A stretch of 49,866 bases of DNA from Candidatus Woesebacteria bacterium RIFCSPLOWO2_01_FULL_39_10 (lineage in GTDB: Bacteria; Patescibacteriota; Microgenomatia; UBA8517). Shown one piece after another: positions 22,304-36,081 of the stretch. The position numbers and the translations under genes are program-made. Location: positions 13,829 to 63,694 of the forward strand of contig MGHC01000026.1 of assembly GCA_001793015.1 (NCBI GenBank). Reading direction: 5' to 3'. The notes under the pieces were generated by a model that worked only from the letters and a program-made list of their open reading frames with translations, did not search any database and had not been told where the DNA came from. How positions within the stretch are numbered: position 1 is the stretch's first letter; the number at the start of each line of letters is the position of its first letter.

Positions 22304-22789
22304 TCACAGGTTTTGTTGGCAAAAACTAAGTTTATATATCTGACCTGCATTATCGGGATTTGCGGATGCAGGAGTCGCAACGTCCACGTTCAATTTGCAG
22401 GCCTCTTCCGGGGTTATTCCTAGTTTTTCTAAGAAAACTTTTTCAGCGGCATCCTTCTGTTCGTTAAATGGTGAGGCAGAGATTGTAATATAAAAAAGGG
22501 TTTGGTCGGGAAGATAGAAAATATGAAAATTGTCTGTGCGGGAAATTGTGACATAACTTTTTTTATCGAAATTTTCTATACCCTTTGTAAAGTCATTCAT
22601 TCTTACACCCGAAATTACGATTGTTGGGCCTTTAAATCTATTATTCCCAGGCAAGAATTTAGAAAGAAATTCGGTGTTTTTAAAAACTTTTACCAAAACC
22701 AATACACAAAGTATAAGAAATATAAAGAGAATTACTCTTTTTACGTCCCTTCCCGGCTTTGTGTTTTCGTTTTTTTTCTTTATGGGCAT
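22304..22789 (-). CDS. Hypothetical membrane-anchored protein
   Basis: The ORF track gives 22304-22843. I prefer the ATG at 22789 (MPIKKKNEN...), which overlaps the upstream stop by 10 nt. It has a single TM helix (VILFIFLILCVLVLV). Confidence 0.5.
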   Translation of the reverse strand: MPIKKKNENTKPGRDVKRVILFIFLILCVLVLVKVFKNTEFLSKFLPGNNRFKGPTIVISGVRMNDFTKGIENFDKKSYVTISRTDNFHIFYLPDQTLFYITISASPFNEQKDAAEKVFLEKLGITPEEACKLNVDVATPASANPDNAGQIYKLSFCQQNL

Positions 22790-25700
22790 AGGCTGGCTAC
22801 AAGTTGCATGCAAATAACATTGGGTGATCCCCAAGGACTCCAATCTTGTCCACCTCCGGACATTGCAGAAGCGTAAGCTGCGTTTTCGTCTGGATCAAAA
22901 TACCCAAAAAATGTTTGTCCATCGCCGTATAAACAATAATCAACTGTCGGTTGGTCTAGTATTTGGCAGGAGGGATTGGGGTACGATGTATAACTAAAGG
23001 CCGCTGCACACACAGGCGGGTGAACTAAGAGGTTTATTTGGAAAAGACCAGCTGAATAGTCGGGAGTCGCTCCAATTCTACAATCATCATTTAAGGCTGT
23101 GGGGTTTCCACCTGACTCTCTGTTGCAAATAACTGAGGCTTGGTTGGCGTGACATCCTGGGAACCATTGGCTAAGATATGTTGGGCTGCAAAGCCCCGTT
23201 CCGATCTGACATCTTCCTCCGGTCGGAGCAGCCGGTGCTGTACAAAGGGATTGAAATACTTGATAAGCATCTTTTAAGGGAGAAAAGCCGGCAAGGGGTT
23301 CTCCCGTTAGACCCATACAGAGAGGTCCCTCAGGGGGTGGGATATCATGAAGCATGTGTAAATCGGCAAACTCGACATAATTTTGTGTAAAGATCCAGCT
23401 TAGGGCGTCTTGTACTCTTTGGGCCTGTTCTGCATAACTTAAGCCACCTATACAATAATTAGAGTTAGTTGCATGGATAGTGTTGAAGCCGTATTCAGTC
23501 AGCCAGATTTTATTGTTTGAATAGCCCCTTGTAACCATAATATCTCTTATTGCCAAAACGTTATTACGGTCTAAGGGGTCAGTATTTCGATTTGCCCCAT
23601 AAGGGTGAAACGTAACTGCGTCAAATCTTCCATTATATCGGTAATAATCATCTACTGCGGAAGCTCCGGCTCCCCCCAGCGGGGCCGCTGCGGCGATTGT
23701 AAGGCTTGAGTCAACTTGCTTTGCGGCATCACTGAATTGATTTAACCAAAATACATATAGCGCAGGATCGAAGTTCCCATTGGGATCATAGTTCCCATTA
23801 ATACCTTTGAAGTTTTCCCACATATCTGGCTCATTCCAAAATTCCCAATTTCTAATTCTTGGGTATTTTCTGACCACGTCTTGTGCAAACTGTCTAAATT
23901 CATTTACAACATTTTGATCATTACGATCCATTACACATTTTGTTTGATTACGGATACAACTGTTGGGATCGTTAGGATCTCCGGGATTGATAGTATTCCA
24001 AGGAGGAATTGTGACAAAAATTCCAATTATTGTTGTATTGTTTCCCAGCATCGTGTTTACGGCTGTATCAATTCCATTTCCATTCCAGTCATAAACGTCT
24101 TTTGTTGCTCCTTCAACTGCCGCCCAGTCTATTCCGAACCTGACGTTGGTTACTCCCAAAGTTCTGAAGTGTTGGGTAAATTGGGTAGGATTGTCCTTGA
24201 TTCTCCAAGATTGGGCAGAGATTCCACACCTTGCTCCTCCAATTTGGCCGAGAGGGGCGTATGGGTCGTTGAGTGGGTCTGGGGCAGACGTACATCCTTG
24301 GCCAAAACCCTTAGGTCTAAGCGTTTTTTGAATACAATTTAAAAAGTATTCATGAATTCCGCCGATATGGGGAAAGTAAAGTTCGGCTTGAGACCCCAAC
24401 CGCCCGGTTGCTGGATTTCCTGCAAGTGCACCACCGGTGACTGTATAGTTTACGGGAGAGGCTGCCGGAATGTCCCAAAGCCGTCTAATAGGACGCCCCG
24501 GCGCATCCTCGATTTTTGGAAATATTCTTTTAAATACGGCGGCTGGACCTGCAACCAAACGAGACCAAACCTCATCGGCTAGAGGAGTCTCCGTTACAGT
24601 CTGAAGAGCAATTGTTGCCGTACTTGAGCAATTTTGAGTTAGATTAAGGTTACTGCCAAAATTGGGATCAATTCCGCAAGTTAGATTACCTGTTCCTGTG
24701 TTGCAGGCTAATCCTGGGCAACATTGACCAAGCGATATCCCCGAAGCCTCGCAGACTTGCCCCGAAGGTATACAAGTAGGAGCAGCAGGAGTGCATCCGA
24801 CACCACAGAATTGATTCAGTCCGCAGTCGACTTGACCATAGTAATTGCTACAGTTCCAGTTTGAAACAGGTAGGGGCTGACAAGAACCAGATCCACCTGT
24901 TAATTTACTACAAAGATTTCCTTGAAGAGTGGGGTCATAGATAGCAAAATCACAGGACATTTGGGCAGTATACTGAATCGTTGCGGTCAGATTTGAGGCA
25001 AAAAGAGAGTCTCCCGGGTTTGACCGAATTTCGCGTATGTCGCAATATTGAGCACTTGGCGCAATGGCAGGATCTGCTGGAGCAGCAAGATCTGCTCCTT
25101 TATACGAGTGAAGAGTTTGTAAAAGCTCTCCAAGCTCGTTTGATTCAAGCATGTGGGAAAAATAAAGAAAGGAAGGATTTTGTTTTGTAATTTGAGAACT
25201 TAAGATCGTTACACTACTGGAACCCGCGGGTTGAATGGAATAAGTATCTAATCTACTTTGACCAACCCTATCTTCAGTTGAGGAGAAAGGAATATAGGAA
25301 AACATTGTTGAACTTGCAGGATTAAATAATCTCCAGAACTGATACCGTATCCAATAAACAAAAAATGGACTGGGATTAACTGGAAGGGGTGGGGGTGGTT
25401 GTCCGGGATTAACTAAATTCCAATACAGATTCCATATTGAACTAAGAAGAGATATATTCCAGATGCGCTGAAGTGGCGGTGCTTGAGTTACAAAGTCAGA
25501 TAGCCTAGCCCCAGGTGGGATGAGTGGTGGGAGTTGAAGACCCGGATAACAGTGAGATACCCCAAGAAGGATGTTCGAGCACGCGACAATCTGATTATGA
25601 CGAATATTACCCTGCTGTTGTTTGTCTACCTCTTGAATTCTTCTGACGACCTGGCTCTCCCAAGAAAGCAGTCTTTTCAAAGGTCCGGAAAAGTCTATGA

Positions 25701-27843
25701 TCCTCTTTTCTCCTTGGGTTGTAAGATTTCCAAAGATGTCAGTATCTGGCGGGTCATATTCTGCTCGGCCTATTACTCCATTTAAATACCAACTGACATA
25801 TTCGTTTACTTTTTGTGGGTCGGTTACTGTTTCGTCTTGAAATCGGCTGTTTATAACTCTAAAAGGGTCAGACTGGTTACCTATTGAAGGTTCAGTGTAA
25901 CCCATTATCGGTAATTCTGTATCTTGAGGGTCGATGGTGATATCCCTGGTTCTTGAGATGTTAAAAACGCAAGTTTCGGTTCCGTCGCCGTTATCACGAC
26001 AATCAGGAGAGTTTGCGCACTGATTAGGAAGGGTCGGATCGCAAGTGTTTAAAGACGGAATGCATTGTGAAGATGGAGTAGTGGATACCGAAGTACATTG
26101 CGGAGCAAGCCAGTGTTCAATATCTGGCTCATTCGGCCCAGTAATTGCGTAAACAGTCCCGCTTACTTGACTGTCAATTGACCGAAGGAAGGCTCCGTAT
26201 TGTGATGCTGACGGACCACTTGTCCAACTTGCATCACCAATTCGGATTATCGGAATAAGGTTACGACTATGTGCGATACCAATATCTGTAAGGACTGGGG
26301 TTTCGTCGATGCCGTTGGAAATAGCTAGTGTGTAAATCATTCCATCGACTCCATCGACGTCTGAGTAAAATTGTGACGGGGCTGAGTAATATACAGCAGA
26401 ATTCGCTCCAAGTTTTGTGCACGGAAGGCTACCGCAGGCGGTTGCAAAGTCGGATATCTTTCCCTGGTTCAGTAAATTTGGATTCCAAGTTGCGGGATCG
26501 TAATTTCCGTAACCGAAACCGTTAAAGAATAGCGCCCCTAAGTAACTGGAATCTCCCTTTACTAACGACATTTGTGTTCCAAGATCGCCCAGTGTTCCAT
26601 CGATAACGCCTGTTTCGGTTACCATTACAGGAAGGTTTAAGCCAGTAGCTGTTCTGAAGGCCGACACGTGTCCGGTAACATTATTACCACAACAGTTATA
26701 AGCGTTTCCTGCGATACCAGTAAGAGATGACCAGTCGGCACCGGCAGCATTCATTGCGCTCGCAATTTGATATGTCACGGGATTTGTGAAGTTAAATGCA
26801 GGAGAAAGAAATTTAATATGCGTTAAAGGCCCTGCGCTTGTTGCGCTGGATATCACACCATTCATATAAGATGCAAGTGCAGTTCCCATACAAGTTGGGT
26901 CAAATCCGATTGGTGAACAATTTCCGCCTCGACAGGCATAGCATGCTGCTCCAAGAGGTGTAGAAGGAACTGCGGGAGGAGAGGAGTAGCTTCCTGAATA
27001 ATTTGAGGGGTCGAATTGTTTATCAACGCTAAAGCTGTCAGTTAAAATAAAATCGTTTCCGCAAAAAAGCGCCAAATCTTCCAAACGCCTATTACAAGGA
27101 CTTGCCTGGTAGGGTCTTAGAGAGTGAAATTCGCCTTCAAAAGGATGAGTTAAGTTTGGCCTCGTTTCGTTACAAGGAACATACGGATCTGGATATGGGG
27201 TGCGCCTTCCAGGCGGTGGAGGATTTGTAACAGAATTACTACAAATTGCAGGAGGACGCTTTGGGTCATATTCTGGATTTCGTACGCTGCAAGAGCCGTA
27301 TGTTTTTGACTCTGGGCAATGACTTACAGGTGAACCGCAGCAGAATACATTTGAGCCGCAGGCCAAAATATCAGTTATTCCAGTCCAGGCACCTGTATTA
27401 AAAGTAACATCTGAGGGTGTGGCAAATTGTTGCCATCCTTTGTCAACGGAAATACCGGCCGGTGTGATAGGACCATCAAAGTTTGTTCCCCAACAAATAA
27501 GGGACGTATTACTCCAACTTGTTCGAGAGCAATAAGGTATAGTTTCCGCAGCCGTACCACAAACTGGGTTTCTAACAGCGTCATAAGCATTTGCTTCCCA
27601 CTGAGTATCGCATTTTACCGCGACCCCCTGTGTATTAATTGTTGCGTCATATAGAATTGCAGGTGGGGTCGGAGCTGCTGTATCGCAGGCACAGTTACTG
27701 CCGTCAGGATTGACGCAATAACAGGCAGCCTTAATTTCTTTTGGAAATGTAAAAAATAGTAAGAAGAAAAAACCCACTAAGAAAGTCAAGAAGTATATTC
27801 TAATAAACTCTTTGTTATTAAAAAAAAAATTGGACAGAAACAT
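22780..27843 (-). CDS. Giant secreted Cys-rich multi-hydrolase with clan GH-A-like TIM-barrel module(s) and a C-terminal lysozyme-like domain
   Basis: 1687 aa with an N-terminal TM/signal (IYFLTFLVGFFFLLFFTF). The GH-A motif is IRNWEFWNEPDMW (Glu codon at 23830-23832) and the nucleophile motif is KIWLTEYGF (Glu codon at 23494-23496). Earlier NEP-like and TE-like motifs are YAITGPNEPDIEHW (about 26111-26150) and VMVTETGV. The C-terminus CNRESGGNPTALNDDCRIGATPDYSAGLFQIN (from 23127 downward) parallels the E...S..DYG.xQIN pattern of C-type lysozyme and lytic transglycosylases. Knottin-like Cys clusters occur throughout. Confidence 0.65.
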   Translation of the reverse strand: MFLSNFFFNNKEFIRIYFLTFLVGFFFLLFFTFPKEIKAACYCVNPDGSNCACDTAAPTPPAILYDATINTQGVAVKCDTQWEANAYDAVRNPVCGTAAETIPYCSRTSWSNTSLICWGTNFDGPITPAGISVDKGWQQFATPSDVTFNTGAWTGITDILACGSNVFCCGSPVSHCPESKTYGSCSVRNPEYDPKRPPAICSNSVTNPPPPGRRTPYPDPYVPCNETRPNLTHPFEGEFHSLRPYQASPCNRRLEDLALFCGNDFILTDSFSVDKQFDPSNYSGSYSSPPAVPSTPLGAACYACRGGNCSPIGFDPTCMGTALASYMNGVISSATSAGPLTHIKFLSPAFNFTNPVTYQIASAMNAAGADWSSLTGIAGNAYNCCGNNVTGHVSAFRTATGLNLPVMVTETGVIDGTLGDLGTQMSLVKGDSSYLGALFFNGFGYGNYDPATWNPNLLNQGKISDFATACGSLPCTKLGANSAVYYSAPSQFYSDVDGVDGMIYTLAISNGIDETPVLTDIGIAHSRNLIPIIRIGDASWTSGPSASQYGAFLRSIDSQVSGTVYAITGPNEPDIEHWLAPQCTSVSTTPSSQCIPSLNTCDPTLPNQCANSPDCRDNGDGTETCVFNISRTRDITIDPQDTELPIMGYTEPSIGNQSDPFRVINSRFQDETVTDPQKVNEYVSWYLNGVIGRAEYDPPDTDIFGNLTTQGEKRIIDFSGPLKRLLSWESQVVRRIQEVDKQQQGNIRHNQIVACSNILLGVSHCYPGLQLPPLIPPGARLSDFVTQAPPLQRIWNISLLSSIWNLYWNLVNPGQPPPPLPVNPSPFFVYWIRYQFWRLFNPASSTMFSYIPFSSTEDRVGQSRLDTYSIQPAGSSSVTILSSQITKQNPSFLYFSHMLESNELGELLQTLHSYKGADLAAPADPAIAPSAQYCDIREIRSNPGDSLFASNLTATIQYTAQMSCDFAIYDPTLQGNLCSKLTGGSGSCQPLPVSNWNCSNYYGQVDCGLNQFCGVGCTPAAPTCIPSGQVCEASGISLGQCCPGLACNTGTGNLTCGIDPNFGSNLNLTQNCSSTATIALQTVTETPLADEVWSRLVAGPAAVFKRIFPKIEDAPGRPIRRLWDIPAASPVNYTVTGGALAGNPATGRLGSQAELYFPHIGGIHEYFLNCIQKTLRPKGFGQGCTSAPDPLNDPYAPLGQIGGARCGISAQSWRIKDNPTQFTQHFRTLGVTNVRFGIDWAAVEGATKDVYDWNGNGIDTAVNTMLGNNTTIIGIFVTIPPWNTINPGDPNDPNSCIRNQTKCVMDRNDQNVVNEFRQFAQDVVRKYPRIRNWEFWNEPDMWENFKGINGNYDPNGNFDPALYVFWLNQFSDAAKQVDSSLTIAAAAPLGGAGASAVDDYYRYNGRFDAVTFHPYGANRNTDPLDRNNVLAIRDIMVTRGYSNNKIWLTEYGFNTIHATNSNYCIGGLSYAEQAQRVQDALSWIFTQNYVEFADLHMLHDIPPPEGPLCMGLTGEPLAGFSPLKDAYQVFQSLCTAPAAPTGGRCQIGTGLCSPTYLSQWFPGCHANQASVICNRESGGNPTALNDDCRIGATPDYSAGLFQINLLVHPPVCAAAFSYTSYPNPSCQILDQPTVDYCLYGDGQTFFGYFDPDENAAYASAMSGGGQDWSPWGSPNVICMQLVASLCP

Positions 27844-27851
27844 GTTGGGCC

Positions 27852-28172
27852 CTATGGTGCTATTTGGAAATTTAGAATGTTCAATTGTCCGGTAAAAACT
27901 CCGATGAATCGCAGGAATAAATATGATAAAGCAAGAAGTACCATTCCTCCAATTGCGTATGTCAAAGTTTTTTTGGCTTGTTCTATGGCCTTAGGGTCTC
28001 CGCCTCCTGTAATAAACTGAATACCTCCCCAAATAAGCATAAAAAAAAGAACGATGCCTGCAAGTCCAAGTAGAGCAGCAATTGCGTTTTCAAAAATGCC
28101 CTCCAATCCTTTGAGGGTAGCAATTCCACTTATATTGTGAACTCCCGCCTGGGCAAGTAGCTTACTTTCCAT
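27852..28172 (-). CDS. VirB2/TrbC-like T4SS pilin-module protein P1
   Basis: 106 aa. Two TM helices flank FITGGGDPKAIEQAKKTLTYAIGG. An AGAGG Shine-Dalgarno lies 2 nt before the ATG. Confidence 0.7.
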   Translation of the reverse strand: MESKLLAQAGVHNISGIATLKGLEGIFENAIAALLGLAGIVLFFMLIWGGIQFITGGGDPKAIEQAKKTLTYAIGGMVLLALSYLFLRFIGVFTGQLNILNFQIAP

Positions 28173-28242
28173 ACCTCTAGTTTAATTGAAGAATTTGAGA
28201 AGGGCAACTGGTGTATTGATAGAATCTTATAGTTTTGTCCAC

Positions 28243-28266
28243 AAAAAAACCCCGATTTAATCGGGG
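28243..28266 (-). terminator. Rho-independent terminator after pilin P2
   Basis: On the minus strand the sequence reads CCCCGATTAAATCGGGG followed by TTTTTTT (plus-strand A-run at 28243-28249). It lies 20 nt after the P2 stop. Confidence 0.7.
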
Positions 28267-28286
28267 TTCTCTTTTTCTTACTCCTT

Positions 28287-28637
28287 TTATGGAGCTTGTG
28301 CATTCGGGATATTGAGTTGCAATATGTTTACCCCGAAGAATATATTAACTAAGTTGATTATTGCCCAAGCTGCAAAGACTATAACTAATCCAACTAGTGC
28401 TGCGGTGATTTGACCTCGCGCAGCCTCTGTCTGGGCTTTGTCGCCACCTGAAGTTATGTATCTTACTCCACCCCAGACTAGCATGAAGAAGAAAACTAAA
28501 GCTGCGACAATAAGAACTAAAATTATTAGAGCGGAAATAATGTTAGCAATCGTAATGTTATTAAGACCCGAGAACTGTCCTCCAGGGCTAATGTTGATTG
28601 GACTTTGGGCGAGAACTGTTGAAAAAAGTGTTGTCAT
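28287..28637 (-). CDS. VirB2/TrbC-like pilin-module protein P2 (own promoter and terminator; candidate major pilin)
   Basis: 116 aa, with YITSGGDKAQTEAARGQITAALVG between two TM helices. Confidence 0.7.
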   Translation of the reverse strand: MTTLFSTVLAQSPINISPGGQFSGLNNITIANIISALIILVLIVAALVFFFMLVWGGVRYITSGGDKAQTEAARGQITAALVGLVIVFAAWAIINLVNIFFGVNILQLNIPNAQAP

Positions 28638-28670
28638 GAAATTTATTTAATTATCTTTATGCTGATTATT

Positions 28671-28700
28671 ATTATGGCCATCACCAATTCTTTTTGTCAA
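28671..28700 (-). promoter_or_regulatory. Sigma70-like promoter for P2 (TTGACA-N18-CATAAT)
   Basis: On the minus strand, TTGACA is the reverse complement of 28695-28700 and CATAAT is the reverse complement of 28671-28676. The -10 element ends 33 nt before the P2 ATG. Confidence 0.45.
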
Positions 28701-28801
28701 GGGGTAAAATGATCTCAATTTTATCCCCTAACGGACATTTTGTGTGCAAAAAAACTTTTTTCTTGACCCAACTTACATTTCCTGCAAGGTGAGTTTTTCA
28801 A

Positions 28802-29176
28802 TTAAGGTATTCTAATTGCATTAATCATTGACTGAAGGTCGAGGATGTCCGGGAGTCCAAGTAAGGTGGCGATAAGGTCAAAAAGAAACATTGCGGCAAT
28901 TACAGCGACAAAACCGATTGCCCCAGTTGTGATTCTTCTTCTGGCACTTTCGTACGCCGCTTTATCTCCACCAGATGAAATAATACCTAGGGCACCTGTT
29001 ATTAGTACGAACATAAAGTAAAGTGCTCCGATGACTGTTAAAACGCCGATGGTTGTCGACAAGATTTGAGCAAGAATTCCAACGGCTCCTCCAGCACCTC
29101 CCACCAAACCAATAGTCCCTATACCGCTTAAGGGATTACCAATGGGTGTAGGATTTTGTGCAATCAAACTTTCCAT
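28802..29176 (-). CDS. VirB2/TrbC-like pilin-module protein P3
   Basis: 124 aa, with IISSGGDKAAYESARRRITTGAIG between two TM helices. Confidence 0.7.
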   Translation of the reverse strand: MESLIAQNPTPIGNPLSGIGTIGLVGGAGGAVGILAQILSTTIGVLTVIGALYFMFVLITGALGIISSGGDKAAYESARRRITTGAIGFVAVIAAMFLFDLIATLLGLPDILDLQSMINAIRIP

Positions 29177-29178
29177 AG

Positions 29179-29514
29179 TTAAGGGGTAAAGACCTTTAAC
29201 TGTAATAATGCGTTTGCGTCGTTAAAGAGAATTAGTCCAATAACTGCCGCGAGTACGAAAGCCCCTGCAGCAATAATCAGGCCCAAAACGCTATGCCAAA
29301 TTTTTGCACCAGCATCTTGAATTCTTTTTGGGTCACCGCCTGCTGAAAGATAGGCATAACCGGCAAGAATTAAGTTAAGTACTGTATAGATCCCGGCTCC
29401 GACAATCAGAGTTCGCAGAATAATGTTTAGAAGTACCTGTAGTCCATTCACACTTCCTCCGGCAAAAGGACGTAGCCAGGTTGGTACAGGAACACTTCCC
29501 CAAGGATTTTGCAT
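29179..29514 (-). CDS. VirB2/TrbC-like pilin-module protein P4
   Basis: 111 aa, with YLSAGGDPKRIQDAGAKIWHSVLG between two TM helices. Confidence 0.7.
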   Translation of the reverse strand: MQNPWGSVPVPTWLRPFAGGSVNGLQVLLNIILRTLIVGAGIYTVLNLILAGYAYLSAGGDPKRIQDAGAKIWHSVLGLIIAAGAFVLAAVIGLILFNDANALLQLKVFTP

Positions 29515-29518
29515 ATTA

Positions 29519-29845
29519 TTAACCTAAAATACTTACACCAAATGTACTCTCAATAAAACGTACAATCAAAAATGCAACTGCTATTATTATAAAGCCAATG
29601 ATTCCTGCTGTGATAATATTTTTTCCCTGCTCAATCTTTTGCGGATCTCCAGCCCCAGTAATCATATAAAAACCCGCAATAATTATAAGAATTACAAGAA
29701 CAACTCCTGCTACCATTATGGCGTTAGATAAAAGGATGGAGACAAGTTGCCCTAATCCTTCAACGCCAGGGTTAAGATCTCCTAAAAAATGTCCAACCTG
29801 GCCAAAAAAAGATTGGTCTATATCAACCTGCGCAAGATAGTTCAT
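29519..29845 (-). CDS. VirB2/TrbC-like pilin-module protein P5
   Basis: 108 aa, with MITGAGDPQKIEQGKNIITAGIIG between two TM helices. Confidence 0.7.
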   Translation of the reverse strand: MNYLAQVDIDQSFFGQVGHFLGDLNPGVEGLGQLVSILLSNAIMVAGVVLVILIIIAGFYMITGAGDPQKIEQGKNIITAGIIGFIIIAVAFLIVRFIESTFGVSILG

Positions 29846-29914
29846 AGTTAAAGTTTAATACAATACTATGTTAGAACTCAAATATTAGATCTCAAAACCA
29901 TATCTTAGAGCTAT

Positions 29915-30304
29915 TTAACTTCTTTTACCTTTCATTGTCAAAAGACTAGATGCAATCATTTTTCCGATCTCTTTTGCTTCAGACAGGAGTGGCTCTACTT
30001 TGTCTACTTTTTCTAGTTTTGAATCTTCCAGGAGCATCAACCAATAGATAGTTTCGTTAGTGCTTTTAAGGGCAATCTCATAAAATTTTATGAAGTCCCT
30101 TTTAGAACTCGATGACTTGGCTTCGACTAGGTTTGCTCCGATAGAAGTCGCGCAACGTAATAATTGATCTTCGATTATCCAATAAACTCTTTTTTCAGGA
30201 AAATCCTTAACGAAAACAATAATTGATAACGAAAATTGATAGGCTCTGTATTTTACATTAGATCTTAGATTTAAGTTATGGTTTTGAGTTTTGAGATACG
30301 ACAT
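29915..30304 (-). CDS. Four-helix-bundle protein (23S rRNA IVS protein / Avd family), copy 3
   Basis: The ORF track gives 29915-30331. I prefer the ATG at 30304 (MSYLKTQNH...), which avoids overlap with the upstream gene. The signature is TSIGANLVEAKSSSSKRDFIKFYEIALKSTNETIYWLMLL. Confidence 0.75.
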   Translation of the reverse strand: MSYLKTQNHNLNLRSNVKYRAYQFSLSIIVFVKDFPEKRVYWIIEDQLLRCATSIGANLVEAKSSSSKRDFIKFYEIALKSTNETIYWLMLLEDSKLEKVDKVEPLLSEAKEIGKMIASSLLTMKGKRS

Positions 30305-30317
30305 ATGAGTTTGTTTC

Positions 30318-31115
30318 TCATCCAAAAACATTTATTATTGGTGGTAAATTAAGAATTCGTGCAACGAGCTGCACTATCCAGAATGCCACAAATATTACAA
30401 TGAAACCAACAATTGCGTACATAATTTTTTCCCGGCCTGCTGCAATTCCTTTCGGATCTCCCTGAGAGGTAAGAATTTGATATCCACCCATGACAATGTA
30501 AATAAGAATAAGAAAACCAACAATTCCAAAGATGTATGGTAAAAGTGCAGCGACAATATTTCCTACACTACATATATTCGTTAATCCGCAGTTCCAGAAG
30601 TTTGGCAACCCTAACCTAATAAATCTTCCAAATTGTATGCCAGCTCGTCCGACTGGCGGGGGGGTTGGTTGGCAAAATACGCAGGATAAACACTGAGATT
30701 GGCCGCATTGAGATGTCGTACAGTAAGGATCACATGGCAATCCTACAGGTCCTAGGACATCTAGATTTTCAATACAGTTTTTCGGACTCGTTGTACTGGT
30801 ACTTGTTGCTGATATTGAATATCTCCCACGGGCTGTACAATTTACCGAAATGGGGGTTGAATTTTGCCCCAACGCGTCAGTCTGAAATGGGGTGGTTGCT
30901 GAGCAGGCGTTATTATTGAAAGCCAGATTATACCTTGTATTTGCATTTCCATTCGTCAAATTGATATTACCGGGCACACCTGCCGAAAGTGGATTCGGAG
31001 TAAATGTTAGGTTGCACTGCCCAGCTTGTGCATGAACTTTGGTGGGTTGAGATAGGAAAAGCACTCCAAACAAAAGAAAGATAGTTGCAATTAAAGTAAT
31101 TTTAATTATCTTCAT
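30318..31115 (-). CDS. Pilin-module fusion P6: signal peptide, Cys-rich ectodomain, then a C-terminal VirB2/TrbC-like module
   Basis: 265 aa. The signal is LLFGVLFLSQPTKVHAQA. The Cys-rich part is CDPYCTTSQCGQSQCLSCVFCQP. The C-terminus LTSQGDPKGIAAGREKIMYAIVG lies between two TM helices. Confidence 0.65.
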   Translation of the reverse strand: MKIIKITLIATIFLLFGVLFLSQPTKVHAQAGQCNLTFTPNPLSAGVPGNINLTNGNANTRYNLAFNNNACSATTPFQTDALGQNSTPISVNCTARGRYSISATSTSTTSPKNCIENLDVLGPVGLPCDPYCTTSQCGQSQCLSCVFCQPTPPPVGRAGIQFGRFIRLGLPNFWNCGLTNICSVGNIVAALLPYIFGIVGFLILIYIVMGGYQILTSQGDPKGIAAGREKIMYAIVGFIVIFVAFWIVQLVARILNLPPIINVFG

Positions 31116-32506
31116 AATCCTGGAATATTAAGAATTCGTACTCCGATAAGTCTTAAAATATAAACTCCAAAAAGGAGTAATAATAAACCGCTAATAGCTG
31201 CGGTCAAAAGCTCTTTTCCCGCCTGAAGTCTCTGAGGATTTCCTGCTGAGGTTATTACCAAAAATGCTGCGTAGATAATCAAAAGAAAGGCAATGCCACC
31301 TGCAATTCCAATTGCCCAACCGAGAATAAATTCTGCAAAATCATTCTTGTTTGTTATTGGAATGCAGCCGATTGCTGTGTAAAGTTTTCCAGTTAATAAA
31401 GGATCTATGGTTGGATTTCCAGAAGCGTCGCAGTAAACCATGGGTGGTTTGGAAGTAGCAGGTGATGCGGGTACACAACAAATTTGGCCCAAAGAGCAAA
31501 CTGAATTAGGGTCAAGTGGATTATTTATTCCATCTGGGGTGGTTCCTGGAATTGAACCGCAAGTAAACCCAGTAACACATGTTCCAGATTGTCCTGTAGA
31601 AACCCCCGTACATGTGGTGGGAGCCTGAAGGCAACTGAGAGTATTTTCTACGCAATAACCGCCAACGCATTTTTGTAAAAGATTACATTGTCCATTAGCC
31701 CCACAAGTGCCACTTGTATCAGTACAACTAAGACAGACAGTTGGTCGGTAATCGCATTGATAACCAGTAAGGCCTATTCCGGTGTTATAGCATACATATC
31801 CTGGCGGGCATCCACCCCCTCCACAAGTGAGATTATAATCAGTACAGATATTACACGAAGAGAGGGGATCAAATACGCATTGCCCGCTTGCGTTACACGT
31901 TTCTGTAGGACGGCATCTTCCGCCCGCTCCACAGCCCCCAATAGCGGGATTACAAATTTGAGTTGTAGGTAGCGGTTGATTTAGAGTACAACCAGTAATT
32001 AAAGGAATAGCACCTCCATCCAAAATTTGTGTTCGATCTCTGATAATGAAGTAAGGTATGACTCTAATCCCGACTTGGCCGCTTGGATAATTAGATAAGC
32101 CACCTGGTGCTGAATGCGAACCAAGATTTGCGGTTTGTCCAAGAGGACAAATTGTGGGTAAATTACCAGTACAATCATAAATTTGGACATCGTTTGTAAG
32201 TCGGTAAGAAGAAACAACATTAGATGGTCCGCACGGCCCATCGCAACAATCGATTAGTAGACTGTAGGAGGGGTTTGATATAGTACTTAGGTAAACATCG
32301 GCATCAGCTATACCTTGTATTAATCTGCTACTTACGGTAATACTAACTTGAGCAGTTGAACAGCTGGAAATATTTGATAGGACTTCAATTTCACCTGCTA
32401 TACCTGACGGAGTGGGAGTTTGTGCGTAAAGTACGGAATTATTAAAAATGAAAGTCGCTATAAAAATAGTAATAAAGACTACCAAAATCTGAAGTAACCT
32501 TTTCAT
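31112..32506 (-). CDS. Pilin-module fusion P7: signal peptide, large Cys-rich ectodomain, then a C-terminal VirB2/TrbC-like module
   Basis: 464 aa. The signal-like N-terminus is followed by many CxxGxC-type clusters (CNASGQCVFDPLSSCNICTDYNLTCGGGGCPPGYVC...). The C-terminus ITSAGNPQRLQAGKELLTAAISG lies between two TM helices. Its stop overlaps the P6 start by 4 nt. Confidence 0.65.
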   Translation of the reverse strand: MKRLLQILVVFITIFIATFIFNNSVLYAQTPTPSGIAGEIEVLSNISSCSTAQVSITVSSRLIQGIADADVYLSTISNPSYSLLIDCCDGPCGPSNVVSSYRLTNDVQIYDCTGNLPTICPLGQTANLGSHSAPGGLSNYPSGQVGIRVIPYFIIRDRTQILDGGAIPLITGCTLNQPLPTTQICNPAIGGCGAGGRCRPTETCNASGQCVFDPLSSCNICTDYNLTCGGGGCPPGYVCYNTGIGLTGYQCDYRPTVCLSCTDTSGTCGANGQCNLLQKCVGGYCVENTLSCLQAPTTCTGVSTGQSGTCVTGFTCGSIPGTTPDGINNPLDPNSVCSLGQICCVPASPATSKPPMVYCDASGNPTIDPLLTGKLYTAIGCIPITNKNDFAEFILGWAIGIAGGIAFLLIIYAAFLVITSAGNPQRLQAGKELLTAAISGLLLLLFGVYILRLIGVRILNIPGL

Positions 32507-34299: not shown

Positions 34300-36081
34300 A
34301 TGATTATTCAGTTAATTTCCAAATTTTTAAAATTCAAGAATCTTGCATGGTTATCATTAGCCCTTTTAACTTTTTTATTTTTTTCACTATTCACTAATCA
34401 CAAATCACCCTCCGGGCTAGAAGCCCTCAAGGGCTGGCAGCTAGTCACTATCTTTGCCGAACCTGATTGTGATAATCCCGGACGAGGGGATATTGATTTT
34501 TGTTTACAAAGAATCGAGGATGAGTTAAATCAACTCAAACCTGCTCAAGAATATAACAAAAAAGAGCTCGCTGGTTTACGAAGCCAAATTACAAGTTTGG
34601 AAAAAAGGATTGTTGGTTTGTCAAACCAACTTAAGGTTGTTGAAGAAGATATAGGGGTTCGAGAGGAAGATCTTGCTTATGCCCAAGCAATTTTTATAGA
34701 AAAAACTAAAAATCACTATAAATTCATTCGTCTTTACGATCCGCTTATGCCTTTTCTTTCATCAGAAAACGCCTCATCTTTTTTTAGAGAAATAGTTTTT
34801 AGGCAAAAAGCAGCAAATGAAGATATAAAGACAATGGAAAAGTACGCTGATGATCTTTTAGCTTTAAAAAAGGACAAGGAAACTCTTGAAAAAAATAAAA
34901 AAAGCCTTTCTTCGCTTCGCACCCAAGTAAATAGCAGGGCTACATTTTTAGCAGGAGAAGTTGAGAAAACAGAAAAATACCTAGCGACTTTGACAGCAAA
35001 GCAAGAAGAACTTTTAGCTCTTAAAGCTGGAGGATTTCAGACTTCTGTTGGTGAAACCCCGGCAACTCTTGAACCGTGTTCCGGTCCTCCGGGATCTTCA
35101 AACTATTGCGATCCTGGATTTAGACCCGCATATGCCGCATTTTCTTTTGGTGCACCGCATAGGACTGGTATGAGTCAGTATGGGGCTTTAGGAAGAAGTA
35201 AGTCGGGACAATCAGCAGAGCAGATTTTGTCTGCTTACTACTCTGGTTCTGAATTAAGAAAAGATTACCCTATTCCTGCAACGATTGGAGTTTCAGGTTA
35301 TGGAAGAGTTTCTTTTGAAGAAAATTACTTACTTGGTATATATGAAGTGCCGGAACGTTGGGGTGATGAAGGAGGGTTCGAAGCCCTAAAAGCCCAAGCA
35401 GTTGCCGCGCGATCCTATGCGCTGGCAGTTACTAATAATGGTAGCGGTACAATTTGCCCTACAGAATCTTGTCAGGTTTATAAACCCCAACTCAAAAGTG
35501 GAAAATGGGCTGAAGCTGTTCGGGCAACTCGTGGTTGGGTAATGGTTAGAGGAGGTTCAGCCGCGACGACTTATTATGCTTCCACCTCCGGCGGCTTCAC
35601 GATTTCTCAGTGGGGTTGGAGCGGAATAAAAGATGCAAAAGATGACAGTTGGCCAAGCCAAGCTTATGAGAAAATAGCCAGCTCTCCCTGGTTTTATAAA
35701 GCCTGGTACAGAACTCGAGGAGGGGCAACCTGTGGAAAAAGTAATCCTTGGTTAACTGGAGAAGAGGCGGCAGATATAATAAACGCCTGGGAAGTACTAT
35801 ATAAAGGAGGAGGAGATGTGTCGAGAATTTCGCCTGTTGATACAAATTGCTGGAGTGGCAATCCTTATTCGAAAGGCGAGCTGGCTGGAATTGGAGGTTA
35901 TACAAGCGTAACAAGCGTGTCGACCGTGTATTCAAACTCCGGATCAACTTTAAATATTTCTTTTGGTACTAATAAAGGGACAGTTACAATAACAGGCGAA
36001 GAATTTAAAAGAGCGTTTAATTTACGCGCACCCGGTTATATTGGTCTTAAAAGTAGCCTATTTAATATAGAGAAATTGTAA
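34300..36081 (+). CDS. Membrane-anchored coiled-coil protein with a SpoIID/LytB-like peptidoglycan hydrolase domain
   Basis: 593 aa. An N-terminal TM helix is followed by a roughly 200-aa coiled coil. The SpoIID-type motifs are GMSQYGALGRSKSG, ALKAQAVAARSYAL, CQVY and YYASTSGGFT. Confidence 0.75.
   Translation: MIIQLISKFLKFKNLAWLSLALLTFLFFSLFTNHKSPSGLEALKGWQLVTIFAEPDCDNPGRGDIDFCLQRIEDELNQLKPAQEYNKKELAGLRSQITSLEKRIVGLSNQLKVVEEDIGVREEDLAYAQAIFIEKTKNHYKFIRLYDPLMPFLSSENASSFFREIVFRQKAANEDIKTMEKYADDLLALKKDKETLEKNKKSLSSLRTQVNSRATFLAGEVEKTEKYLATLTAKQEELLALKAGGFQTSVGETPATLEPCSGPPGSSNYCDPGFRPAYAAFSFGAPHRTGMSQYGALGRSKSGQSAEQILSAYYSGSELRKDYPIPATIGVSGYGRVSFEENYLLGIYEVPERWGDEGGFEALKAQAVAARSYALAVTNNGSGTICPTESCQVYKPQLKSGKWAEAVRATRGWVMVRGGSAATTYYASTSGGFTISQWGWSGIKDAKDDSWPSQAYEKIASSPWFYKAWYRTRGGATCGKSNPWLTGEEAADIINAWEVLYKGGGDVSRISPVDTNCWSGNPYSKGELAGIGGYTSVTSVSTVYSNSGSTLNISFGTNKGTVTITGEEFKRAFNLRAPGYIGLKSSLFNIEKL

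Follow-up and report, generated by a model that had tools for sequence, protein, structure and literature searches.

A conserved core with variable, predicted glycan-cutting modules: a multidomain protein of the type IV secretion pilin operon in a Woesebacteria-type family

A 49,866-nucleotide stretch of the genome of Candidatus Woesebacteria bacterium RIFCSPLOWO2_01_FULL_39_10 (contig MGHC01000026.1, positions 13,829 to 63,694; hereafter the window) carries, directly after an array of pilin genes, a long gene whose product of 1687 amino acids (aa) is the subject of this study. The gene is part of a type IV secretion system (T4SS) pilin operon and a fixed accessory component of the T4SS/pilus cluster in one Woesebacteria-type family. 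Judged from its sequence, the protein is exported, disulfide-rich and multidomain, and its catalytic apparatus of the glycoside hydrolase (GH) 39 type and its lysozyme-type catalytic pair both appear intact. It is the conserved core, and not the enzymes, that defines the gene family, and this main part of the protein, about 40% of its length, was missed in an earlier note on the same DNA. On balance we lean towards reading the whole as a T4SS-associated, envelope-glycan-cutting subunit in which the core carries swappable enzyme modules.

The open reading frame (ORF) is intact and lies on the minus strand; going by stop-codon frequency, an open frame of this length in DNA of 40% G+C is far beyond chance. 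Domain boundaries were drawn from pairwise and multiple alignment with homologues, and the gene is laid out as follows, from its start to its end.

22780..27843, minus strand: whole gene, 1687 aa plus stop
27727..27843, minus strand: aa 1-39, putative Sec-type signal peptide or N-terminal anchor, hydrophobic from about aa 14 to 34, then IKA-A
27199..27726, minus strand: aa 40-215, Cys-rich N-terminal domain with 14 Cys, common to only 5/120 homologues
27019..27141, minus strand: aa 235-275, motif M, EFHSLRPYQASPCN..EDLALFCGND, in 112/120 family members
26074..26907, minus strand: aa 313-590, module A, predicted (beta/alpha)8 barrel whose GH-A-like motifs are permuted in order
26614-26616, minus strand: module A, Glu of TETG (E410), in VMVTETGV
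26128-26130, minus strand: module A, Glu of NEP (E572), in GPNEPDIEHW
24274..26070, minus strand: aa 592-1190, conserved core domain, predicted fold without known relative
24628..24954, minus strand: aa 964-1072, Cys-rich insert in the core with 14 Cys, 10 of them invariant in 9 homologues
23227..24246, minus strand: aa 1200-1539, module B, predicted clan GH-A barrel nearest GH39/PslG, with E1338 and E1450
23830-23832, minus strand: module B, putative acid/base E1338, in NWEFWNEPD
23494-23496, minus strand: module B, putative nucleophile E1450, in IWLTEYGF
22783..23211, minus strand: aa 1545-1687, SLT_3 lysozyme-like domain (PF18896)
23116-23118, minus strand: SLT_3, E1576, Glu35 equivalent
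23059-23061, minus strand: SLT_3, D1595, Asp52 equivalent

The earlier note had described a Cys-rich ORF of this length with an N-terminal anchor or signal, and both descriptions hold. The protein contains 66 Cys, an even number, and the motifs singled out there fall where they had been placed, with VMVTETGV at aa 406, GPNEPDIEHW at aa 569, a Cys-rich stretch from aa 988, NWEFWNEPD at aa 1332, IWLTEYGF at aa 1446, ESGGNP at aa 1576 and DYSAGLFQIN at aa 1595. Read directly from the sequence, the N-terminus consists of a charged n-region followed by about 20 hydrophobic residues and the IKA-A site, and the alignment shows the same signal-like start in homologues, with (V/I)xA-Q/A sites. The Cys-rich N-terminal domain has no match in Pfam, and searches with the whole protein against PDB sequences, NCBIfam and PHROGs returned nothing useful.

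The surrounding genes are those of a patescibacterial T4SS cluster. Seven T4SS_pilin genes (27852-32506) lie upstream; a small membrane-protein ORF comes downstream, as does a VirB6-like protein that bears a Hint tail; and elsewhere in the cluster are a PrgI/VirB3-like protein, VirB4 (TraG P-loop, CagE/TrbE/VirB), a J-domain membrane protein and interspersed 23S-IVS four-helix-bundle genes. The two flanking genes are as follows.

27852..28172, minus strand: last gene of the VirB2-like pilin array, 106 aa, PF18895 (T4SS_pilin) at E 2e-11
22304..22789, minus strand: small membrane-protein ORF downstream, likely ATG at 22789

That the big gene is co-oriented with the nearest pilin gene (pilin P1 of the earlier note) and only 8 nucleotides downstream of it is correct: the ATG is at 27843 and the pilin gene ends at 27852, and the 8-nucleotide gap holds no clear Shine-Dalgarno sequence. 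We compared this arrangement across 20 species genomes that belong to the window's GTDB family, together with three loci from metagenomes, and in 23/23 loci an array of 7-10 pilin genes is followed by the core-family gene and this in turn by the VirB6-like gene, with a small ORF recognisable between the last two only sometimes. The core-family genes in these loci encode 731-1333 aa, and the window's protein is the largest member seen.

Does the protein belong to the secretion apparatus, or does it merely lie beside it? It might serve general remodelling of the wall or of exopolysaccharide, in growth, division or biofilm turnover, with its place among T4SS genes an accident of lying near the replication origin. 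PslG-type enzymes, to which one of the modules is nearest, normally serve exopolysaccharide biosynthesis or turnover, and this established role would suit such a function. It would also suit the observation that T4SS clusters in these bacteria are found close to housekeeping genes (PMC12102498). Against it, the gene keeps its place behind the pilin array and ahead of the VirB6-like gene in every one of the 23 loci, co-oriented and with frames overlapping or near-touching, and the family is confined to lineages with the T4SS locus. Because synteny is conserved, an accidental genomic location is excluded, and we give general remodelling hardly any weight.

The core is what the members of this family share. 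It is common to all 120 homologues analysed (120/120), and searches returned at least 274 core homologues, all of them unannotated, the named ones being Candidatus Woesebacteria. Within the GTDB family it is present, in single copy, in 106/125 species genomes, and in 91/101 of those of good quality; in a 301-genome sample of the phylum, the sole core match outside the family was one weak one (E 3.6e-6).

An AlphaFold 2 (AF2) model of the core, built from 64 sequences, is confident and of mixed alpha/beta type (predicted local distance difference test, pLDDT, 86.5; predicted template modelling score, pTM, 0.79). Foldseek comparison of this fold yielded nothing significant in the PDB fold library (best E 0.09) or in the viral library BFVD (best E 0.05, probability 0.04), and the core sequence has no match in PDB sequences or Pfam. 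The maturation proteins of single-stranded RNA phages, which bind pili, top the core's BFVD list; with E of at least 0.05, probability of at most 0.04 and a template modelling (TM) score of about 0.1, they were treated as noise. Their crowding in the viral fold list, though non-significant, is curious for a protein of a pilus operon. The invariant polar residues of the core, among them E695, R748-H749, S855 and E857 in FSSTED, H897 and E900, and D945 in NPGD, could mark a site of catalysis or binding. Within the core, aa 790-835 (about 25339-25476) make up an insertion rich in proline and aromatic residues, NISLLSSIWNLYWNLVNPGQPPPPLPVNPSPFF, which otherwise occurs only in the closest homologue, P0002.

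The core's best Foldseek match in the PDB library is a double-knot toxin, a weak match (E 0.09, probability 0.84, 62 columns) whose aligned part is presumably the Cys cluster at aa 964-1072; this insert is possibly a tandem cystine knot. The earlier note had placed knottin-like Cys clusters between modules. A role as inter-module linkers is rejected, since the cluster is an invariant part of the core itself, and the likeness to knottins stands to the extent of the one weak toxin match.

Among the enzyme modules, the sequence evidence for module B points to a retaining glycosidase of clan GH-A, nearest to the PslG branch of GH39. Taken alone, its sequence gave only sub-threshold GH1 and GH_cc matches and reached no Pfam GH cut-off. 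A phmmer search of 1.8 billion representatives returned 830 homologues at E <= 0.001, and a profile of 55 homologues matches PslG (GH39, 5bx9) over the whole barrel at E 1e-54, followed by 5jvk and then by GH39 beta-xylosidases at about 1e-29. With the single sequence below threshold and the homologue profile significant, the assignment is transitive but strong. Each of the Pfam families Cellulase/GH5, Glyco_hydro_cc, GH42 and GH39 is matched by 22 to 31 of the 55 homologues, and GH10 by 10. The only invariant columns of their alignment are E1338, H1413 and E1450, and the two Glu, which align with WNEPN and TEWG of PslG, are those that the earlier note had proposed as a GH-A catalytic pair, a proposal upheld by their invariance and by the profile match.

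Module B is a clean insertion: it is missing from P0002, the closest homologue, which is 57% identical. A fragment, P0010, shares 66% identity across aa 1191-1687 and likewise carries GH39 followed by SLT_3. In another protein, P0011 (1437 aa), which lacks the core, an SLT-like segment (GPCQFMPNQW) occurs together with a GH39/PslG-like barrel at the C-terminus, which shares 48% identity with module B; since its architecture is unrelated, the pairing of lysozyme with GH39 arose more than once.

The C-terminal domain scores 42.4 bits against Pfam SLT_3 (PF18896; cut-off 27) and stays below the cut-off of the classical SLT family (PF01464; E 0.28). E1576, D1595, GLFQIN and six Cys are invariant in 20 SLT_3 homologues. 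In the PDB, the best matches to the SLT_3 profile are insect C-type lysozymes (6ukc, E 1.4e-4; 3cb7, E 2.2e-4), with human lysozyme next (E about 0.01-0.2). The invariant acidic pair falls on Glu35 and Asp52, and several Cys line up too, but hhalign of the profile against hen lysozyme alone gave a weak match (E 0.012, probability 4%). The earlier note had likened this end of the protein to C-type lysozymes and lytic transglycosylases, and C-type lysozymes are indeed its best solved relatives. A Glu/Asp pair like theirs makes it probable that the domain works by hydrolysis, as a muramidase, and not as a lytic transglycosylase. In the collection of papers searched, none mentions Pfam SLT_3 (PF18896).

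Module A is a harder case. Its AF2 model (pLDDT 84, pTM 0.85) consists of eight alternating strand/helix units, in which strand 2 ends in GNAY(N/H), strand 3 in TETG and strand 4 in an aromatic FN.F motif, and NEP comes after strand 8. Members of clan GH-A carry the acid/base of NEP on strand 4 and the nucleophile of TE on strand 7. The order in module A is thus reversed relative to GH-A and is not the canonical one, with TETG at aa 410 coming before NEP at aa 572; a reversed order with the same three-strand spacing is what would be expected from a circular permutation that opened the chain anew between strands 4 and 5. Aligned by hhalign to a GH39-like profile, native module A gives two separate insignificant pieces (E 0.012 and 0.019), whereas the re-permuted module, with the strand 3-4 units first, aligns colinearly in a single piece over 150-180 columns (E 5e-4 to 2e-3, probability 14-32%). 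NEP is invariant in 10/10 homologues of the module and the Glu of TETG is kept in 9/10; GNAY is likewise conserved.

Module A was found in 9/120 of the core-family homologues, where it sits N-terminally, after motif M or after the core. Its occurrence at three positions marks it as an autonomous domain in its present order, and for this reason a pair of tandem canonical barrels was rejected. Foldseek returned only generic triosephosphate isomerase (TIM) barrels of many superfamilies (E about 1e-4, TM <= 0.47), and module A alone had no match in an index of 5.8 billion proteins. We also rejected filing it as a GH-A member, since neither sequence nor fold searches connect it with any family of glycosidases. 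The model makes it very probably a TIM barrel; that it is a permuted GH-A glycosidase we regard as an even call. Of the second barrel that the earlier note had suspected at VMVTETGV and GPNEPDIEHW, the barrel prediction and the conservation of the motifs stand, but the motifs run in reverse order and no glycosidase family is matched. In the C-terminal 609 aa of P0195, a divergent second segment precedes a copy of module A and has the same C..A..YMNTVI helix start; the two may be a tandem pair of module-A-type barrels.

Could such modules bind glycans without cutting them? The protein might be mainly structural or adhesive, a pilus-associated adhesin of tip or base whose modules are not active enzymes. 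A conserved part that is a non-enzymatic core of novel fold would fit this, as would a disulfide-rich build made for the extracellular space, a gene that follows the pilin genes at a gap of 8 nucleotides, and a module A homologue without the putative nucleophile. The E, H and E of the GH39 barrel are invariant in 55 homologues, however, and the E and D of SLT_3 in 20. Such invariance argues for retained catalysis and makes a purely adhesive role less likely; we consider it distinctly improbable.

The add-ons to the core vary across the family. Among the 125 species genomes, the GH39 module is present in 1/125 (that of the window), module A in 12/125 and SLT_3 in 18/125, and a NAGPA domain (PF09992) occurs in other members, amounting to about a quarter of core-family homologues. 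The C-terminal tails differ as well.

SLT_3 tail: 41/120 homologues, by hidden Markov model match
'Type 1' tail, about 185 aa: 50/120 homologues, with an invariant W.NE(S/T).ASNY...DFG and a conserved terminal C-P
Weak SLT/SLT_2-like tail: 21/120 homologues, sub-threshold Pfam matches
Fourth tail type: 5/120 homologues, no Pfam match

By these assignments, a lysozyme end is common among homologues and not universal; that every family member ends in a lysozyme was not confirmed, the commonest tail (50/120) matching nothing. This 'type 1' tail, carried by P0009, P0163, P0186, P0225 and others, had no match to Pfam, PDB or the SLT_3 profile, and may be an undescribed lysozyme-like or other catalytic domain.

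The variation bears on a further explanation, in which the protein performs VirB1/PrgK-type housekeeping only, opening the cell's own peptidoglycan and surface polysaccharide for assembly of the T4SS channel and pilus, with no action on a host. Monoderm T4SSs need a dedicated wall hydrolase, for example PrgK or TraG of pIP501 (cited in PMC12102498), and the fixed operon place directly after the pilins would suit one, as would a lysozyme-like domain that has an intact catalytic pair and is the sole SLT_3 domain in the window's genome. Less easily reconciled with it are the 18/125 family genomes with SLT_3 against 106/125 with the core, the speed at which GH39, NAGPA and module A are gained, lost and moved about, which would be unexpected for a conserved self-wall target, and the presence at the locus of other wall-active candidates, SpoIID and a peptidase. 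We judge housekeeping alone to be somewhat unlikely, but an own-wall role of the VirB1 kind is a serious competitor.

The SpoIID-domain gene is divergent and lies on the far side of the pilin array (window 34300-36081, plus strand); it was detected in 16/23 loci (L002-L025), several of the remaining loci stopping before that position. At the other end of the big gene, the small membrane-protein ORF overlaps its stop by 10 nucleotides, with an identical overlap in L004, the only locus checked, and has a recognisable homologue in the same place in 7/23 other loci; overlap and homologues together suggest translational coupling. Near the start of the big gene, a run of ten T (T10) lies at 27820-27829 inside codons 5-9 (N-F-F-F) of the minus strand. 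The L004 orthologue, from another genome, also has a T10 run (L004 4672-4681), and as the two proteins are only 57% identical, the homopolymer itself is conserved; it is either a slippage switch or a mere choice of codons for FFF.

Under the reading that we favour, a T4SS-associated subunit with a core and swappable enzyme modules, motif M and the core of about 600 aa probably fold into a scaffold that would hold the protein at or near the apparatus or pilus. By its family membership, the SLT_3 domain would cleave the backbone of peptidoglycan between N-acetylmuramic acid and N-acetylglucosamine (MurNAc-GlcNAc), and module B, on the same kind of ground, would act as a retaining endo-glycosidase on a non-peptidoglycan surface polysaccharide, with E1338 as acid/base and E1450 as nucleophile. 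Module A would probably be one more glycosidase barrel, the third, and would have arisen from clan GH-A through circular permutation. Acting together, the modules would remove envelope glycans that stand in the way of the pilus or channel of the T4SS. Action on the cell's own wall may also play a part; as the modules are swapped between species while core and position stay fixed, the variable envelope of the partner (host) cell seems more likely to be the main target.

Several points weigh against this picture. Because the core has no detectable relative, its role as scaffold or tether is pure conjecture. The lysozyme domain is found only in a minority of family members, and with the commonest tail unmatched, peptidoglycan cleavage need not be the conserved function of the family. 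SpoIID-like and peptidase proteins are also encoded at the locus and are possible wall breachers. Neither native nor re-permuted module A had a glycosidase match in Pfam or PDB sequences, and in P0184 a Lys replaces the Glu of its TETG. As to whether the own wall or a host envelope is the target, the evidence from sequence favours neither decisively.

A bolder version takes the core as a new-fold, pilus- or T4SS-associated carrier of interchangeable glycan-cutting 'warheads', namely C-type-like lysozyme, PslG-like GH39, NAGPA and module A, matched to each lineage's host envelope, module A as the first circularly permuted clan GH-A glycosidase, and the SLT_3 domain as a bacterial branch of the C-type lysozymes. 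We think it unlikely in this full form. If true, the warhead carrier would be a determinant of host range in episymbiotic Woesebacteria, with a function analogous to that of the depolymerase tail spikes of phages.

Why might such a gene family matter? T4SS clusters of this kind are described as essential in Southlakia epibionticum (PMC10633639), and in the only species of Patescibacteria open to genetics, growth as an epibiont depends on the T4SS. Classical VirB1 homologues are rarely found near virB4 in Patescibacteria, where other glycosidases may substitute for them, and the published survey of the group reports neither PF18896 nor the present gene family (PMC12102498). The wall-breaching component of the patescibacterial T4SS has not yet been identified in most classes, and the gene family offers a concrete candidate in the Woesebacteria-type family, with testable catalytic residues. 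A fixed core with swapped enzyme modules could, moreover, report what these uncultivated bacteria attach to, and structure determination would be worthwhile for the core, for the barrel that may be a permuted GH-A and for the SLT_3 domain with its likeness to C-type lysozymes.

Each of the three enzyme modules can be set beside a known system. Module B shares the conserved WxxWNEP, HPY and IWxTExG motifs with PslG of Pseudomonas aeruginosa (5bx9/4zn2) and the GH39 beta-xylosidases; it differs from PslG in consisting of the barrel only, the alignment stopping at PslG residue 334 of 416 and the last ~80 residues having no counterpart, and in being inserted in a 1687-aa protein of a T4SS locus. 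The SLT_3 domain aligns with the C-type (GH22) lysozymes (6ukc, 3cb7, human and hen) at ES..N, DY.G(I/L)(F/L)QIN, Cys64 and later Cys, and differs from them in being bacterial, fused and endowed with extra Cys, the similarity being weak; the Pfam SLT_3 entry, above whose cut-off it scores, is uncharacterised. Circularly permuted TIM-barrel glycosidases are known from GH70, which is permuted relative to GH13 (clan GH-H) and gives a precedent for a rotated strand order with the catalytic geometry kept, as proposed for module A. The clan of these enzymes is a different one, and the permutation of module A is deduced from motifs and a predicted model.

As a whole, the protein is most readily compared with VirB1 of diderm systems, PrgK of pCF10, TraG of pIP501 and CwlT of ICEBs1, all of which, like it, are encoded in T4SS clusters; the window's protein, too, is a T4SS-cluster product, predicted to be exported, with a lysozyme-superfamily domain that, going by its family, would cleave peptidoglycan. 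Multidomain wall hydrolases are already known from T4SSs of the monoderm type, and in this respect the protein resembles PrgK, TraG and CwlT. In contrast to these systems, it has no CHAP, NlpC/P60 or LytM partner and carries glycosidase barrels instead; its lysozyme-like domain is of the SLT_3, C-type-like kind and not a classical SLT, most of it is the novel core, and the lysozyme is dispensable across the family. Three features appear to be undescribed: the family with its novel core, the employment of glycosidase barrels (PslG-like GH39, NAGPA and module A) in place of peptidase partners, and the resemblance of SLT_3 to C-type lysozymes. Searches revealed no resemblance in sequence or fold to phage tail-spike and tail-fibre depolymerases or virion-associated lysins, and the window's protein is a component of a cellular secretion system; the likeness is one of analogy only, in that a conserved attachment part is joined to interchangeable glycan-cutting modules that differ between close relatives.

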